This document shows positions 1,512 through 20,256 of a DNA stretch of 64,000 nt, piece after piece (the stretch's first letter is position 1; every line of letters begins with the position of its first letter). Source of the stretch: Actinomycetes bacterium (lineage in GTDB: Bacteria; Actinomycetota; Actinomycetes; S36-B12); the NCBI GenBank assembly GCA_965278965.1, contig OZ257127.1, positions 39,159 to 103,158 of the forward strand. The letters run 5' to 3'. Position numbers and translations under genes: made by a program. The notes under the pieces are model-generated. The model saw only the letters and a program-made list of their open reading frames with translations. It did not search any database and was not told the origin of the DNA.

Positions 1512-2024
1512 CTACGACGCCTTGGACGCCGACACCGTCAGAACGGTCTGGCCCTCTGCGCCCATCCCGCTGACGTTGACCGTGTAGCCGTTGCCCTCGT
1601 AGTCGGCCGACGCGAGCATGTCCATGCTCGGCATCGTGCCCTCGGAGGGCTTGAGGGTGAACCCGGCGCCTTGGAGCAGGGCGCCGTACGCGGCGACCGC
1701 GTCGGCCGGGCTCTGGTCGACGGTCCACAGTGCTGATGCGGTGCCGTCCGGCTCGACCGCGGCGGCGTTCAGCGAGCCGGCGTCGTAGGCCGGCACCTCG
1801 GCCGGCCAGCCGTCGGGCAGCTCCACGTTCTCGCCGATCGTCACCGCCTTGCCGCTCTCGTCGGTGATGGTGACGTTGCCGTCGTTGATGTCGACGTCCC
1901 CGCCGATTGCGGCCTCCGCCGCGTTCTCGGCCGCGCTCTCGACGCCCCCGCACGCGGCGAGCACCGGTGCCCCGAGGGCCAAGGTGACGGACAGCAGGAC
2001 GACGGACATGCGTGATCTGTTCAT
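1512..2024 (-). CDS. Hypothetical lipoprotein
   Basis: GGAGG RBS before ATG 2024; hydrophobic signal with LAAC lipobox; ELPDGWPAEVP motif. Confidence 0.7.
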   Translation of the reverse strand: MNRSRMSVVLLSVTLALGAPVLAACGGVESAAENAAEAAIGGDVDINDGNVTITDESGKAVTIGENVELPDGWPAEVPAYDAGSLNAAAVEPDGTASALWTVDQSPADAVAAYGALLQGAGFTLKPSEGTMPSMDMLASADYEGNGYTVNVSGMGAEGQTVLTVSASKAS

Positions 2025-3028: not shown

Positions 3029-3418
3029 ATGACCAGAGTGACAGACGCACTAGACGTCTCCAATGCAGCACACGCCGTCCAGTGGGACGGCTCCCGCCGG
3101 CACGCCAACGCGATCGTCGCTTGGATGCGAGCGCACGGAGTCGACTCCAGGTACGAGGCAGCCAAGCAAGTCACCGGGTGCCTGTACCCGCCGACGATCT
3201 GGCTGAGGATGCCAACCGCTGAGGACCGCCCCGGCCCCATCGCCGATCCCCGAGCGCCCTTCCTGCTGCAGGTCTACGCGGGCGGCTGGATCGTTCGGTG
3301 TCCGGCCGCAATCGACTGCTGGATCGCGGGGCAGCAGCTCGGCGTCGAGGCGCCGTACTGGGACGACAGAGGCGAACGAATCGTCCCGCCGAAGGTTCCT
3401 TCGGCCTACGAGGTTTAG
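3029..3418 (+). CDS. Hypothetical protein (element cargo)
   Basis: 129-aa ORF with AAGGAAAGG RBS-like sequence; AVQWDG motif seen in small phage proteins. Confidence 0.55.
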   Translation: MTRVTDALDVSNAAHAVQWDGSRRHANAIVAWMRAHGVDSRYEAAKQVTGCLYPPTIWLRMPTAEDRPGPIADPRAPFLLQVYAGGWIVRCPAAIDCWIAGQQLGVEAPYWDDRGERIVPPKVPSAYEV

Positions 3419-3470
3419 GACCCTCCGCTACGGGGAAGGCTCCCTACATCCGTGATCCCCCGCGCGGAAG

Positions 3471-3502
3471 CGACGCCCCGGCTGGCAACGGCCGGGGCGT
3501 CG
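3471..3502. terminator. GC-rich hairpin (possible terminator)
   Basis: cgacgccccggc / gccggggcgtcg 12-bp stem. Confidence 0.45.
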
Positions 3503-11383: not shown

Positions 11384-12540
11384 CCGTCACCGACCGCTGG
11401 CACAGCAGCACGGGGGAGCAGTCCACGGAGTACGGACGCGGCCGACGGTGGCTCGTGCGCTACCGGGATCCGCAGGGCAAGCAGCGCTCGCGTTCGTTCG
11501 ATCGCAAGGCGCAGGCGGACGCCTATGACCTACGGGTGCGCGGCCAGGTCGTCGAGAGCACGTACGTCGACCCGTCCGCCGGCAAGGTCACGTTCGGGGA
11601 GTACGCGCAGGCGTGGCTCGCGTTGCAGACGCACTGGCGGCCGTCGACCCGTCGCAGCCAAGAGCAGATGGTGAAGCTCCGGATGGTTCCGCACATCGGC
11701 ATGACGCCGCTGCGGGTGCTGAACCGCTCGCAGGTGCAGGCGATGGTGAACGCCTGGCGGACCGACTACGCCGCGGCCACGGTCACCACGACGTTCTCGT
11801 GCCTGCGGACGATCCTCGCGTCGGCGATCGACGACAAGGTGATCGCGACCGACCCGTCGACCAAGATCAAGGTCCCGACGCCGCCGCGTCGTCGTGACGT
11901 CCACCTGAGCCACGAGCAGGTGGCGACGATCCTCGGAACCGCCAAGCCCGAGCTGCGACCGTTCTTCGCGTCGCTGGCGTGGTGTGGGCTGCGGCTGGGG
12001 GAGTCGCTGGGGCTCGACGTCGCGGACGTCGACTTCCTGACCGCGACGCTGACCGTGCGCCGGCAGATGGACACCGAGGACCCGGCGGGTCGGATCGTGC
12101 CGTTCACCAAGACCGACGCGGGTCGACGCGAGGTTCCGGTGCCGCCTGAGCTCACCGCGATGTGCTCGGCGTTCCTGGCCGCTCGACGCCGCGCGGACGG
12201 ATCGCTCGAGGGCACGCACCTGTGGCAGGCGCCGAGCGGCGCCCGGCTACTGCGGACGGTCGTCGACACCGAAGTCCGCCGGATTGAACGGCGCACGGGC
12301 ATCACGTTCTCGCCCCACCACCTGCGGCACTACTACGGGGCCAGCCTGATCTCGGCTGGCGTGCCCGTTCCGCAGGTCGCCAAGCAGATGGGCCACGCCA
12401 GCCCACAGGTGACCATGCGCGTGTACGCCTACGCGATGAAGGACGACGCCGACAAGGGTCGCGCAGCCGTCGCAGCGCTCGCCGGCCTCTCTGCGCCATG
12501 TGCACCGGATGTGCACCGGACCGTGGCGGTGAGCAAATGA
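11380..12540 (+). CDS. Tyrosine recombinase / phage integrase
   Basis: Catalytic GLRLGE (R), TKT (K), HHLRH (HxxR), MGH, VYAY (Y); N-terminal WLVRYRDPQGKQRSRSF arm-binding domain. Confidence 0.96.
   Translation: MTVTDRWHSSTGEQSTEYGRGRRWLVRYRDPQGKQRSRSFDRKAQADAYDLRVRGQVVESTYVDPSAGKVTFGEYAQAWLALQTHWRPSTRRSQEQMVKLRMVPHIGMTPLRVLNRSQVQAMVNAWRTDYAAATVTTTFSCLRTILASAIDDKVIATDPSTKIKVPTPPRRRDVHLSHEQVATILGTAKPELRPFFASLAWCGLRLGESLGLDVADVDFLTATLTVRRQMDTEDPAGRIVPFTKTDAGRREVPVPPELTAMCSAFLAARRRADGSLEGTHLWQAPSGARLLRTVVDTEVRRIERRTGITFSPHHLRHYYGASLISAGVPVPQVAKQMGHASPQVTMRVYAYAMKDDADKGRAAVAALAGLSAPCAPDVHRTVAVSK
12499..12519 (+). repeat. Candidate integrase arm-type site (tandem TGTGCACC)
   Basis: tgtgcaccggatgtgcaccgg, matches 2879-2899. 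Confidence 0.7.
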
Positions 12541-16284: not shown

Positions 16285-16318
16285 CGAAGGCCCCCAGCCA
16301 CACGGCTGGGGGCCTTCG
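16285..16318 (+). terminator. Intrinsic terminator-like hairpin
   Basis: cgaaggcccccagcc-acac-ggctgggggccttcg 15-bp stem after the stop codon. Confidence 0.75.
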
Positions 16319-16348
16319 TGTGTCCGGGACCAGGCGCCCCCCAACCTC

Positions 16349-16407
16349 GCCACCTTGCCGTTTCAGGCCGCATCTCGGCGATATGCGGCCTGAAACGGCA
16401 AGGTGGC
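16349..16407. repeat. 25-bp perfect inverted repeat (REP-like hairpin A)
   Basis: gccaccttgccgtttcaggccgcat / atgcggcctgaaacggcaaggtggc. Confidence 0.9.
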
Positions 16408-16422
16408 TAAGTAGGCGAGCGC

Positions 16423-17343
16423 TCAGCTGCGTGGGCTCCAGCCAGCCTTTCGCAGCATCGGCCCGACCACGCCAGGGATCCGATCCACCGTGTAGGTGTC
16501 CTCCCACGCGAACCTCAGCAGGACAGCACGAGCCCGCGCCTGCATCACGTTCTGTCGATGGCGATCGGCGAGAAGCGCGTCCGGCAGTTGGTGGATGCTC
16601 CGGCCATCGAACTCGACGATGAGCCAGCTCCCGTCTGGCAGTTCGTAGCCGATATCGCCGTAGCCGGCGAGAGACCCGGTTTCGGTCCGCACGGGAACTT
16701 GGAGCGAGTCCGGTGGCAGACCCGCGTCTTCGAGGATGAGGCGGACACGGGTCTCGCCCGGGGATTGCGAACCCTCTCGTGCTCGGTCCAGGCTCGCCCG
16801 GCCAGTGCGGCAGCCGCGCAGGCCCGCCATCGACGCTCGGATGTCCGGCAGGTCGTCGACGCCGATCATGCGTTGGTCGAGCGCGGAGTCGACCAGGCAC
16901 ACCGCCTGGACGGGTGGGAGCAGGCGACAGACGTCCGCCAGCGTGCGGGCCACGCTGGTCGTCGGCAGGTCGGCGACGTGGACGACGTGCTCTTGGGGCA
17001 GGTCCCACACCCGTAGCTCCATCCCGGGCCGCTGCCGCCGTTCCAGGCCCGGCGGCAAAGCTGCCTGTGGGACCCAGGACGCCGGGAGTCCCTGAAGGCG
17101 GTGGAGGCGTGCGGCCGATCCCAGCACCGCCACTGCCTGGTCGCCGAGGTGTGCGAGTACGGCGCGAATCTCGGCGTGCTCGTCATTGACGTCATGTACG
17201 CGATACACGCCGCGGAACGGGCGCTCTATGTGCCCGCGGTCGGCTTGGCGCTGGAGCTGTGTTCGGGTCAGCCCGAGGTGGGCCGCGTCAGCTGCCCGCA
17301 CGAGGCCGTGCTTGTCGGTGATGGGTCGCTTGGGCGGTCGCAT
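16423..17343 (-). CDS. AbiEi-like N-terminal domain plus DUF559/Vsr-like nuclease domain protein
   Basis: HGLVRAADAAHLGL...RPFRGVY, TTSVARTLAD, SPGETRVRL, IVEFDGRSIH, DRHRQN..LRFAWED. Confidence 0.85.
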   Translation of the reverse strand: MRPPKRPITDKHGLVRAADAAHLGLTRTQLQRQADRGHIERPFRGVYRVHDVNDEHAEIRAVLAHLGDQAVAVLGSAARLHRLQGLPASWVPQAALPPGLERRQRPGMELRVWDLPQEHVVHVADLPTTSVARTLADVCRLLPPVQAVCLVDSALDQRMIGVDDLPDIRASMAGLRGCRTGRASLDRAREGSQSPGETRVRLILEDAGLPPDSLQVPVRTETGSLAGYGDIGYELPDGSWLIVEFDGRSIHQLPDALLADRHRQNVMQARARAVLLRFAWEDTYTVDRIPGVVGPMLRKAGWSPRS

Positions 17344-17432
17344 TCGACAAGGGTCAACGTGATCGGCGGCGGCGCGCGGCCCCGCGGATGTCCTGTGGAC
17401 GCTGACCGTGAGCGGGCGGTTCTGTGCGCCTT

Positions 17433-17495
17433 CGCCGACCTTGGGGTTTCAGGCCCCATCCGGGCCACATGAGGCCTGAAACCCCAAGGTCGGCG
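17433..17495. repeat. 23-bp perfect inverted repeat (REP-like hairpin B)
   Basis: cgccgaccttggggtttcaggcc / ggcctgaaaccccaaggtcggcg; homologous to hairpin A. Confidence 0.9.
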
Positions 17496-17505
17496 GGTGG
17501 GGCGG

Positions 17506-18377
<872 letters not shown>

Positions 18378-18381
<4 letters not shown>

Positions 18382-19280
18382 GCGCCCCCTCCATCCGTGG
18401 TCAGCGACTCGCCGGACTCCGTCAGGGCCTTGTCGTGGTGCGAGCCGAGGTACGCGTCGATGACGGCGCTGTTCGCCATGACGGCCGACGGCGGGCCCTC
18501 GGCGATGATCTGCCCCTGGGCCATCACGATCACCCAGTCGCTGATGTCGTGGACCATGTCCATGTCGTGCTCGACGAACAGGACGGTCGCGCCCTCCTCA
18601 CGCATCCCCTTGATGTGCCGCAGGAGGCTCTGGGTCAGCGCCGGGTTCACGCCCGCCATCGGCTCGTCGAGCATGATCAGCTCGGGGTCGGTCATGAGCG
18701 CGCGGGCCATCTCCAGGAGCTTGCGCTGGCCGCCGGAGAGGGAACCCGCGTAGTCGTCCTGCTTGGGCAGCATCGAGAACCGCTCCAGCAGCACCCGCGC
18801 GCGGGCCGTGACGGCGTCCTCCTGCTTGCGCCACAGGAACGGAAGCGCCGACGCCCAGACCCGTTCGCCGCGCTGGCCGCGAGCCCCCAGACGCATGTTG
18901 TCGAGGACGGACATGCGACTGAGCGCCTTGGTCAGCTGGAACGTACGGACCATGCCCAGCCGGGCGACCTTGTGCGGGGCGACGCCGGCGAGCGGCGTGC
19001 CGTTGAACGTCCAGTCACCGCTGTCGGGGGAGTCGAATCCCGTGAGCAGGTTGAAGAACGTCGTCTTGCCCGCACCGTTCGGGCCGATGAGCGCAGTGAT
19101 CGACCCGCGCTGCACCTCGACGTGGGCGACGTCGACCGCCGCGAGACCGCCGAAGCGCCGAACGACGTCGTCGGCGATGACGATCGGGTCCGGCTTGGGG
19201 ACGCCTGGGGTGTGCGGCACGTCGGCCAGTGCCGAGACGGCCGCTTGTGCGCGCGGGCCGGAGCCTTCGCTATCGACCAT
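18378..19280 (-). CDS. livG: BCAA ABC transporter ATP-binding protein
   Basis: GPNGAGKTT, RTFQ, LSGGQRKLLE, VEHDM. Confidence 0.92.
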
Positions 19281-20256
19281 CGAGAGCCAGCTCCTTCCGG
19301 TCGCCGAAGATGCCTTGCGGTCTGAAGATCATCAGGAGCATCAGGCCGAGGCCGACGAGGATGAAGCGAATGGGGCCGACGTCGGTGGGCTGCAGGAAGT
19401 CGATCCAGCCCGCCTTGATCATCTGGTTGAGGAACTCCCCGACGAAGACGAGAAGGAACCAGAAGATGATCGCGCCGGCGATCGGGCCGAAGACGCGGGC
19501 GGCCCCGCCGAGCAGCACGATCGTGTAGGCGAAGAACGTGACGTCGGGGACGAAGTTGTCCGGCTGCACGGACTGCTTCGCCACGGCCCAGACGATGCCG
19601 CCCATCGCGCCGAGCATGCCGCCGAGGACGAGGGCCTGCATCTTGTACCAGTACGTGTTCTTGCCGAGCGACACCACAGCGTGCTCGTCCTCGCGGATGC
19701 CGCGGATGACGCGGCCCCACGGGCTGCGCACGAGCAGCCACACGCCCAGGGTCAGGACGGCGACGAGGACCCAGCCCACGGTCGCGACCCACAGGTCCTG
19801 CCGGGTGAAGGCCAGGAACGGCAGGCTGATGTCCTGCGGGAACGGGTTGAGGTCGTGGAACTCCTGGCCCATCTTCCCGTTGATGCCGTTGACGCCGCCG
19901 AAGGTGTCACGCAGGGCGATGGAGCGGACGACGAGCCGGATGATCTCGCTGGCGGCGATCGTGACGATCGCGAGGTAGTCCGCACGTAGTCGGAGGGTGG
20001 GGATGCCGAGGATGAGCGCGAGGACGACCGAGCCGAGCAGGCTGACCAGGATCGCCAGCCACAGGTTCAGCCCCATCGTCACGACGATGACGCCGACGCC
20101 ATAGGCGCCCACCGCGACGAACGCGACCTGGCCGAAGTTGAGCAGGCCGGTGTAGCCGAACTGCATGTTCACGCCCATGGCGGCCAGGCAGTAGATGATC
20201 GCGGTGACGCCGATGGCCTGGGTGACGGCCTGGCTGAACACGAACGAGAGGTCCAT
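19270..20256 (-). CDS. livM: BCAA ABC transporter permease
   Basis: GYTGLLNFGQ, LRLRADYLAIVT, SPWGRVIRGIREDE. Confidence 0.92.
   Translation of the reverse strand: MDLSFVFSQAVTQAIGVTAIIYCLAAMGVNMQFGYTGLLNFGQVAFVAVGAYGVGVIVVTMGLNLWLAILVSLLGSVVLALILGIPTLRLRADYLAIVTIAASEIIRLVVRSIALRDTFGGVNGINGKMGQEFHDLNPFPQDISLPFLAFTRQDLWVATVGWVLVAVLTLGVWLLVRSPWGRVIRGIREDEHAVVSLGKNTYWYKMQALVLGGMLGAMGGIVWAVAKQSVQPDNFVPDVTFFAYTIVLLGGAARVFGPIAGAIIFWFLLVFVGEFLNQMIKAGWIDFLQPTDVGPIRFILVGLGLMLLMIFRPQGIFGDRKELALDGR

Follow-up and report, generated by a model that had tools for sequence, protein, structure and literature searches.

Extragenic palindromes bracketing AbiEi–Vsr-like nuclease genes in an actinobacterial genus: a candidate protein–palindrome partnership with a REP/RAYT-like genomic pattern

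A nuclease gene between two related palindromes

We analyzed a 64,000-nt stretch of DNA from an Actinomycetes bacterium (assembly GCA_965278965.1, contig OZ257127.1, positions 39,159 to 103,158; the whole stretch is called the window below), centering on a gene for a predicted AbiEi–Vsr-like nuclease that lies between two long, related palindromes. The gene and its two palindromes, together called the unit, were followed through the source genome (labelled G000; a single contig of 3.68 Mb with 71% G+C) and through related genomes. Coordinates of the features are collected in Table 1. The genes adjoining the unit encode a periplasmic binding protein and branched-chain-type ATP-binding cassette (ABC) ATPases. 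On the downstream side, 15 nt separate the stop codon of the nuclease gene from the start of the palindrome, which imperfect pairing widens to 16334-16422. On the other side, the convergent ABC ATPase gene has its stop codon 10 nt from the end of the upstream palindrome.

The two palindromes are of the same inner-stem subtype (TCAGGCC), and their outer stems represent a GCC/GGC variant downstream and a GGG/CCC variant upstream. They are 81% alike across 53 nt. Folded as single-stranded DNA, the downstream palindrome gave -38.7 kcal/mol (z -8.9) and the upstream palindrome -32.9 kcal/mol (z -8.4), and none of 200 shuffles equalled either of them. The core common to both was found four times in the window vs. 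0.01 expected. A preliminary description of this stretch had reported perfect inverted repeats of 25 and 23 bp around the gene, a shared core with a compensatory CC/GG change, and a separate terminator for the binding-protein gene. These structural claims were borne out: both sets of arms were recovered, the 23 perfect pairs of the upstream stem being followed by a mismatch and three more pairs, the occurrences of the core in the window are exactly the four arms, the CC vs. GG difference is mirrored in the opposite arms, and the binding-protein gene is followed by a perfect 15-bp stem. This terminator-like hairpin is outside the palindrome superfamily described below and has a counterpart at the same position in the empty site of a relative (G006).

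A scan for promoter and terminator consensus sequences gave 0 sites: the hairpins lack a T-tract behind them, and the spacer between the gene and the upstream palindrome has no sigma-70-type consensus. In Rfam (E ≤ 1) there were sub-threshold matches to generic hairpin (microRNA precursor) models, none of which reached the gathering score. Pfam lists AAA_21 ("putative AbiEii toxin") for the neighboring ATPase genes at 17506-18381 and 18378-19280. The listing comes without a matched stretch and is therefore taken as generic ATPase similarity; the label could trick annotators into calling a toxin partner beside the unit.

Table 1. Coordinates of the unit, of related loci in other genomes and of distant paralogs with palindrome pairs of their own
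Feature	Position	Strand	Description
Terminator-like hairpin	16285..16318		Perfect 15-bp stem, directly 3' of the periplasmic binding-protein gene; -23.4 kcal/mol, z -8.1
Downstream palindrome	16349..16407		Perfect 25-bp arms 16349-16373 and 16383-16407, 9-nt loop
Nuclease gene	16423..17343	-	306 aa; sole family-matched open reading frame between the palindromes
Predicted Vsr/DUF559-like PD-(D/E)xK nuclease domain	16438..16764	-	Residues 194-302
Predicted AbiEi-type two-domain DNA-binding module	16777..17340	-	Residues 2-189; winged-helix N-terminal part and AbiEi C-terminal domain
Spacer	17344..17432	-	89 nt, from start codon to upstream palindrome
Spacer motif GTCCACAGG	17392-17400	-	Window copy of the conserved motif
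Upstream palindrome	17433..17495		23 perfect pairs, one mismatch, three further pairs; 9-nt loop
Genes with the stop codon inside the arm	L098, L084, L026, L085, L028, L086, L087, L031, L088, L089, L090, L091, L092, L093		
Orthologous intergenic sites with different inner stems across species	L112:2271-2331, L105:1415-1476, L205:1454-1515		
Distant family members with their own pairs	289 kb, 3401 kb, 248 kb; 1870 kb		The member at 1870 kb is an 83-codon remnant
Hairpin pairs of distant paralogs	L011:2286-2343 and 3430-3483; L010:2204-2296 and 3273-3336		
Hairpin pairs of distant paralogs	L006:10792-10853 and 11838-11899; L215:667-730 and 1710-1769		

Predicted fusion of an AbiEi-type module and a Vsr-like nuclease

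The gene product is predicted to be a fusion of a complete AbiEi-type DNA-binding module with a Vsr-like nuclease. In Pfam, AbiEi_4 alone was above threshold (N-terminal, E 3.8e-10), and the PADLOC AbiEi models, the one PADLOC model type that matched the protein, cover residues 10-202 (best E 4.7e-20). The protein stayed below the Pfam cut-offs for DUF559 (PF04480) and MTES_1575 (PF18741; 15 bits vs. a cut-off of 38.2), and zero matches were obtained in NCBIfam. An AlphaFold2 model built on 46 relatives reached a predicted local distance difference test (pLDDT) score of 91 and a predicted template modeling (pTM) score of 0.88. Its residues 2-189 matched the AbiEi antitoxin 6y8q_A (Foldseek E 8.5e-7; VIA-align Z 12.5 with 181 residues aligned). 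The best structure match of the nuclease domain was 3r3p_B, the catalytic domain of the homing endonuclease I-Bth0305I (VIA-align Z 11.2, root-mean-square deviation 2.5, 95 residues aligned), and residues 192-302 also aligned with the DUF559 protein 3hrl_A (Z 9.7) and with Vsr, 1cw0_A (Z 8.9), in VIA-align. In a search of the PDB, the sequence profile of the 46 relatives matched 3hrl_A at E 1.1e-5. We assign the domain as a nuclease because of the predicted fold and this profile match. Residues E197, D230, E244, and D246 are invariant across the 46 aligned relatives, and the motif of the nuclease domain reads E-F-D-G-R-S-I-H rather than a contiguous EDxHD. Of the earlier designation as an AbiEi/DUF559-like nuclease, the AbiEi part thus stands above threshold and the nuclease part is carried by fold and by the 3hrl profile, with the DUF559 and MTES_1575 models remaining sub-threshold.

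The AbiEii toxin family (PF08843) had no match beside the unit, as had been noted in the preliminary description, and none in the rest of the genome; control genomes did give matches. A classical toxin-antitoxin pair is ruled out because no member of the AbiEii family was matched in the genome. The protein is not an orphan antitoxin with a lost partner. No transposase family in Pfam was matched by the protein, and family scans of the protein and its neighbors revealed no Y1/DDE transposase or integrase in or beside the unit. Comparison with the orthologue in the related genome G022 gave a ratio of nonsynonymous to synonymous substitution rates (dN/dS) of 0.16 at a dS of about 1, and the gene is under purifying selection. 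Between the same two genomes, the nuclease protein is 74% identical, vs. higher values for its neighbors (binding protein ~88-91%, partial ATPase 99%).

A dispersed palindrome superfamily in the source genome

The exact core is present in nine copies in G000. A profile search placed these copies within a wider superfamily with a common 16-bp outer stem and differing inner stems, and an iterated search converged on 40 superfamily copies, or ~1 per 92 kb. The palindromes are 57-69 nt in length, typically ~63 nt, and 57 nt is the shortest length common to nearly all copies. By our reading of the alignment, the inner-stem subtypes comprise 12 (A), 10 (B), 6 (C), 6 (D), 2 (E), 3 (F), and 1 (G) copies. 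Six of the 40 copies flank three close paralogs and the other 34 are solo, 10 of which share the inner stem of the window pair. The copies are single and dispersed, which rules out a CRISPR array.

In the 40-copy alignment, the outer-stem pairs are near-invariant, and all seven inner-stem pairs show at least three pair types. Over the whole stem, 155 cells were altered on both sides vs. 64 in shuffles; none of 500 shuffles was as high, and slid controls collapsed. These palindromes form a dispersed family whose outer stem is conserved and whose inner stem covaries; covariation of this kind does not discriminate between formation of a hairpin and recognition of the duplex palindrome by a dimer.

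Distances to gene ends and gene arrangements around solo copies were taken from a crude in-house gene caller. By these crude calls, 25 of the 34 solo copies have a gene 3' end no more than 40 nt away, and the copies are distributed over 10 convergent, 20 tandem, and 4 divergent gene pairs. The scanned genes beside solo copies are ordinary housekeeping genes. Four solo copies (e.g., L008:2190-2258) have a distance of -10 or -11 to the nearest gene end according to the same crude calls, and the stop codon of the host gene apparently falls within the arm there, as it does in nuclease genes (see below).

Family members in the source genome and their own palindrome pairs

A tblastn search of G000 with the window protein detected two close paralogs (58% identity) and five weak ones; two members were added by a DUF559 family search, which brought the family to ten members in this genome. 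Some of the distant paralogs exceed the Pfam DUF559 cut-off. The window gene has a subtype-A copy on each side, the paralog at 972.5 kb is bracketed by a subtype-B pair, and the paralog at 2574 kb has a subtype-C copy on each side. Each of these three close-paralog units is located between convergent genes.

Four distant members are bracketed by long-hairpin pairs as well, and the sequence families of these pairs are unrelated to the window superfamily (Table 1). In all, seven of the ten family members in G000 have a cognate flanking pair, and the pairs belong to four unrelated palindrome families. The member at 2583 kb has a hairpin on one side, and no flanking hairpins were found at the members at 878 kb and 1173 kb. 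At least one of these unrelated families is dispersed too, its arm being present at 38 places, which we read as ~23 loci. Copies of this second palindrome family (e.g., L011:2270-2345) are often composite, with an additional short stem-loop beside the main palindrome. The L010 and L006 families have a common outer stem and a differing inner part, which is the design of the window superfamily.

Bracketing, subtypes and co-occurrence across the genus

The genus sample consisted of 33 genomes, 15 of which gave a strong protein match (E 1e-99 or better), and 19 loci of the gene's clade were examined. A superfamily palindrome is present on both sides at 15 of the 19 loci; one further locus has a downstream copy only, the most divergent locus has none, and at two a contig end truncates the upstream side. 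Across the clade loci, 64-117 nt separate the end of the upstream copy from the start codon. Of the 18 genes with a downstream copy, 14 terminate at a TGA that belongs to the conserved CTTGAGG arm (Table 1), so that the last codons of the protein are encoded by the repeat. The window gene and its G022 orthologue are among the four exceptions.

Between the upstream palindrome and the start codon, all 15 units that were aligned carry the motif GTCCACAG(G) in one or two copies, irrespective of palindrome subtype. Where the motif is doubled, as it often is, its copies are about 30 nt apart. The motif could represent an operator or a promoter element. Inner stems are mostly alike within a pair and unlike between genes, and sisters in the protein tree share a subtype (G000 unit 1, i.e., the window unit, with G022; G003 with G043; G004 with G007). 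The palindrome subtype tracks the protein tree.

A covariance model built from the 40 copies was run over the genus; 150 candidates were scored per genome, and matches on both strands were counted. All 15 genomes with the strong gene match have palindromes, with 22-145 model matches each. The 18 genomes without it comprise 12 with zero matches, four with 2-10, and two with 30 and 50, one of the latter two being 71% complete and the other in 540 contigs. In G013, the third-closest genome by binding-protein identity (80%), a strong gene match was lacking and the palindrome matches numbered only 3. Among 144 genomes of the order from outside the genus, 3 showed 1-2 marginal matches. The complete genome G010 contains 52 copies in 3.5 Mb, of which ~38 are of the GGCGTG subtype, 8 CCGCCC, and 6 TGGCAC. 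The GGCGTG subtype does flank genes for sister proteins in G020, G003, and G043. Five superfamily palindromes are found inside 22 kb around the sole nuclease gene of G010 (G010:C1:653301-674903).

Bracketing by palindromes was also found far from the window clade. A distant paralog was searched against 151 genomes of the order, 49 of which matched; the best 30 loci were taken, and 25 of them were evaluable on both sides. Nineteen of these 25 distant loci, from many genera, share a repeat between the upstream and the downstream side (blastn E ≤ 1e-3), and at least 9 are clear long-hairpin pairs with a sequence of their own at each locus. When 1.84 billion proteins were searched with a profile of the family, 16,194 representative clusters matched at E ≤ 1e-30, and nearly all of the best 150 profile matches align over almost the full length. 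In a word-indexed search, close relatives were unnamed or called "hypothetical", and remote ones were named PDDEXK nuclease or very-short-patch-repair endonuclease.

Gain, loss and join points

At the window site, G022 has the orthologous binding-protein gene (~88-91% identical) and the same unit in the same place. The corresponding interval of G006 (binding protein 85%) extends over ~85 nt to the ATPase gene and holds the terminator hairpin only. Among other relatives, G013 has a different gene in the interval and G023 and G017 have short intervals; the unit is absent in all three. Compared with sister species, the unit represents an insertion or a deletion, and the gene and its two palindromes, which keep a fixed spacing, are one heritable unit that is gained and lost en bloc.

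The sites of the other two close-paralog units (units 2 and 3) also vary between species. Where G000 has the palindrome-gene-palindrome arrangement of unit 3, G024 has a solo palindrome of another subtype with the same left junction, the contigs of G022 break inside a palindrome, and G006 and G013 are empty. The unit-2 site is empty in G024. At two solo sites of G000, the matching position in G006 is taken by a palindrome that belongs to another subtype; for these two sites, the synteny or the intergenic sequence of G022 and G013 is too changed to define edges. The same intergenic site can thus hold different subtypes in different species (Table 1), and the differing inner stems at orthologous sites suggest either that insertion has recurred at these spots or that the inner stem has been replaced between the conserved outer arms.

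A larger segment is concerned in G043, in which a 19-kb cluster for polysaccharide biosynthesis, without a detected recombinase, lies between two near-identical palindromes (L220:754-816 and 19804-19866). In the sister species G003, flanks 93% identical to those of G043 are joined at a single palindrome (L223:1501-1563). Since these changes of units and segments occur at palindrome copies, the palindromes mark break-and-join points.

A protein–palindrome partnership and alternative explanations

We favor, on balance, a functional partnership of protein and palindrome that is similar in genomic pattern to repetitive extragenic palindromic (REP) sequences and their REP-associated tyrosine transposases (RAYTs) and is run by an unrelated enzyme. 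With the same cautious preference, we take the partnership to be genus-wide, joining a family of ~63-nt extragenic palindromes to the AbiEi–Vsr-like nuclease genes. The resemblance to REP/RAYT is in genomic pattern and not in enzyme family, and binding and cleavage by the protein are putative activities. The preliminary description had likened the arrangement to REP/RAYT, as a hairpin-plus-nuclease system rather than a toxin-antitoxin gene; as a genomic pattern this is supported, and the genome gave no match to the AbiEii family. Three things that it proposed to look for were found: stand-alone copies of the hairpin, including some with the inner stem of the window pair; paralogs with cognate pairs, both in G000 and at other loci of the genus; and the absence of the unit from the interval between the binding-protein and ATPase genes in the next relatives. 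Beside genes of this family the palindromes show strong enrichment, and at this site the gene is not vertically fixed.

In the mechanism that we propose, the AbiEi-type half would bind the palindrome; AbiEi antitoxins are described as binding to inverted repeats within the promoters of their genes. An operator role is possible for the upstream copy in combination with the conserved spacer motif. The Vsr-like nuclease would nick or cut at palindromes, and the breaks would be repaired by copying from other copies. Repair of this kind would spread and homogenize the palindromes, could swap inner stems between conserved outer arms, and might occasionally carry the gene plus two palindromes into a new site. 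Recombination between two copies would delete the intervening DNA and leave a solo palindrome.

Several observations weigh against such a partnership. No flanking direct repeats or target-site duplications were seen at the 40 copies of G000, and a transposition intermediate was not observed either. Subtypes without a resident gene account for 12 of these 40 copies, and the only gene of G010 has TGGCAC flanks, the abundant GGCGTG subtype being without a gene of its own in that genome. The two genomes with 30 and 50 model matches gave no strong gene match, and the pair in G020 is mixed, with a different subtype on each side. The orientation of the flanking copies, as judged from the loops, is also mixed, with direct copies in 4 units, inverted copies in 3, and no clear call for the remainder. 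The empty site of G006 holds no superfamily palindrome, so insertion into a pre-existing solo copy is not supported at the window locus. Finally, the compared genomes are kin, and the co-occurrence counts therefore overstate independence. Two stricter propositions were given up along the way: specificity of one gene for one subtype is weakened by the G010 subtype counts and the mixed G020 pair, and a constant orientation of the two flanking copies was dropped in view of the direct and inverted cases.

The alternative that survives best, which we nevertheless regard as unlikely, is that the palindrome-gene-palindrome cassette is the sole mobile entity, homing-endonuclease-like or other, and that solo palindromes are deletion relics comparable to solo long terminal repeats and have not spread in trans. 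Gain or loss of the unit as a block at the window site would be expected from this, as would the solo copy of G024 at the junction where G000 has a full unit and the single copy in G003 in place of the 19-kb segment between two copies in G043. The structural similarity of the nuclease domain to the homing endonuclease 3r3p_B, its best match at Z 11.2, and the persistence of subtypes without a resident gene are also in line with it. However, the ratio of copies to genes is 40:3 in G000 and 52:1 in G010, and dozens of insertions and losses would be required per genome. Different subtypes at orthologous sites across species do not fit well either, and the 38 near-uniform copies of one subtype in G010, present without its gene, look more like the amplification of a short element.

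A further explanation, in our view improbable, is that the palindromes are host elements (REP-like terminators, stabilizers of messenger RNA, or nucleoid sites) and the protein is a domesticated, autoregulated caretaker. The protein might, for example, nick mismatched or extruded palindromes, whose arms would then be repaired against each other and remain perfect, and the flanking pair would act as operator and terminator of the gene. Dispensability of unit and palindromes, which follows from their complete absence in 12 of the 33 genus genomes, argues against a host function, as do the different sites of the gene in different species, the lack of a T-tract after the hairpins, and the terminator hairpin that the neighboring gene already has. 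On the other hand, the solo copies are placed as such elements might be (by the crude gene calls, 25 of 34 at ≤40 nt from a gene 3' end, with 30 of 34 in a convergent or tandem gene arrangement), the palindromes show an unusual degree of perfection and compensatory differences, and the gene is under purifying selection. Partial accounts in the literature also describe AbiEi proteins as autoregulating via inverted repeats and Vsr as a mismatch-specific nicking enzyme (PMC3424549).

It is very unlikely that the gene is a single-protein defense or toxin-antitoxin-like module, consisting of an AbiEi-type sensor or regulator and a nuclease effector, with the palindromes as insulating terminators of a horizontally moving cassette. 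Such a module would account for the patchy presence of the cassette between species and for the N-terminal 190 residues, which match AbiEi models of a defense-system library (~E 1e-20) and the AbiEi structure, but AbiEi is the one PADLOC model type matched, the AbiEii family is without a match in the genome, and the units are single, between housekeeping genes and outside defense islands. It also leaves unexplained the cognate pairs from unrelated families, the dispersed solo copies, and the way in which subtype follows the protein tree. Chance adjacency of two common terminator-like hairpins to an unrelated gene has next to no probability, even though the hairpins do sit at gene ends like terminators: at ~1 copy per 92 kb, all three close paralogs have a copy within 120 nt on both sides, both-sided copies are present at 15 of 19 genus loci, and unrelated palindrome families bracket distant paralogs too. 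An integron cassette was ruled out by the lack of an integrase and of arrays, and an insertion sequence (IS) element or miniature inverted-repeat transposable element (MITE) by the lack of a transposase and of target-site duplications.

Comparison with known systems

REP sequences with RAYTs are, to our knowledge, the one documented case of a bacterial enzyme gene that is tied to a genome-wide population of short palindromes. The term REPtron is said to have come from Ton-Hoang in 2012. In outline, the same logic is seen here with a different enzyme, in another phylum, and within a protein family of very large size. The part of Nunvar et al. (2010) considered here gives four traits of RAYTs: two flanking REPs, co-evolution with them, faster evolution than the neighboring genes, and a correlation with REP abundance. 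All four traits have counterparts in the present system, and the enzyme is of a family other than the one that defines RAYTs. As far as the consulted portions of the REP/RAYT literature go (Nunvar et al., 2010; Bertels and Rainey, 2011), both systems consist of short dispersed extragenic palindromes, mostly located after genes, and of an enzyme gene bracketed by two copies of its own repeat, although the orientation here is mixed and not always inverted. In both, the repeat type co-varies with the protein, the gene evolves faster than its neighbors, gene presence goes with repeat abundance, and several independent repeat-gene pairs coexist per genome.

The differences are also clear. The enzyme here is predicted to be an AbiEi-type binder with a Vsr-like PD-(D/E)xK nuclease and not an HUH/Y1 transposase related to IS200/IS605 TnpA, and its chemistry therefore cannot equal that of REP/RAYT. 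A repeat here consists of one long, near-perfect palindrome of 57-69 nt, the outer stem of which is conserved and the inner stem variable; copies number in the tens and not hundreds, and the stop codon of the gene is usually inside the repeat. Moreover, the unit itself is gained or lost between species, and the host belongs to the actinobacteria.

Vsr-like (EDxHD) homing endonucleases such as I-Bth0305I (PDB 3r3p; PMC3239194, consulted in part) resemble the protein in nuclease fold (Z 11.2), in being a selfish-looking nuclease gene with an extra DNA-binding part, and in presence or absence at a defined site. In contrast to these enzymes, the gene here is outside any intron or intein, no split recognition site was seen at it, and it is bracketed by complete palindromes that are also found alone many times. 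The AbiE type IV toxin-antitoxin system has in common with the protein the AbiEi fold and sequence signature of the N-terminal two thirds. It differs in that no match to an AbiEii (DUF1814) nucleotidyltransferase partner was found here, the single gene having a fused nuclease instead, and in that the inverted repeats here take the form of long palindromes, which flank the gene on either side and recur at other places in the genome. In the excerpt considered here, a survey of PD-(D/E)xK nucleases mentions DUF559 merely as a Vsr-like clade. DUF559/Vsr proteins (3hrl, 1cw0) share the fold, with a profile match to 3hrl, whereas the present protein has a 190-residue AbiEi module in front and no evident link to Dcm methylation or T/G repair.

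IS200/IS605 elements, MITEs, and integron cassettes offer parallels in their hairpin-forming ends around one gene, in derivatives that are short and non-autonomous, and in a single-gene unit resembling a cassette. The units described here differ from all of these in having no Y1/DDE transposase or integrase and no target-site duplication, and in being single and not arrayed. No description of a palindrome-bracketed AbiEi–Vsr-like gene arrangement was found in the literature that we searched.

A broader proposal, which we put forward tentatively as a serious possibility, is that the AbiEi–Vsr-like family of ~300 residues is the enzyme partner of an unrecognized class of nuclease-driven palindromic repeats, a second, independently evolved REP-like system whose chemistry is unrelated to that of HUH transposases. 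Each lineage of the protein would recognize and nick its own long palindrome and, by way of break repair, would copy, homogenize, and reshuffle palindromes, its own cassette, and occasionally whole gene clusters situated between two copies. If so, such a system would mold the intergenic regions and the gene content of actinobacteria and, via small DUF559 proteins, perhaps those of further phyla. The labels that family members usually carry are antitoxin fragment, hypothetical protein, or repair endonuclease. A functional partnership would assign a role to tens of thousands of unexplained genes and would correct a common mis-annotation, the proteins not being orphan antitoxins. It would also account for families of long perfect palindromes in high-GC genomes and would mark the join points of gene-cluster gain and loss, e.g., of the 19-kb polysaccharide cluster, and it would make sequence-programmable palindrome-specific nucleases available for study.

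A small DUF559 gene of Escherichia coli K-12, ycjD (L219:5041-5830), was also inspected. A quick look at the L219 region gave no matched pair on both sides of it. CT-rich inverted arms lie downstream and overlap the 3' end of the gene, part of this 3' end is present as a 39-nt, 90%-identical duplicate, and a different, perfect 17-bp hairpin is located at the 5' end.

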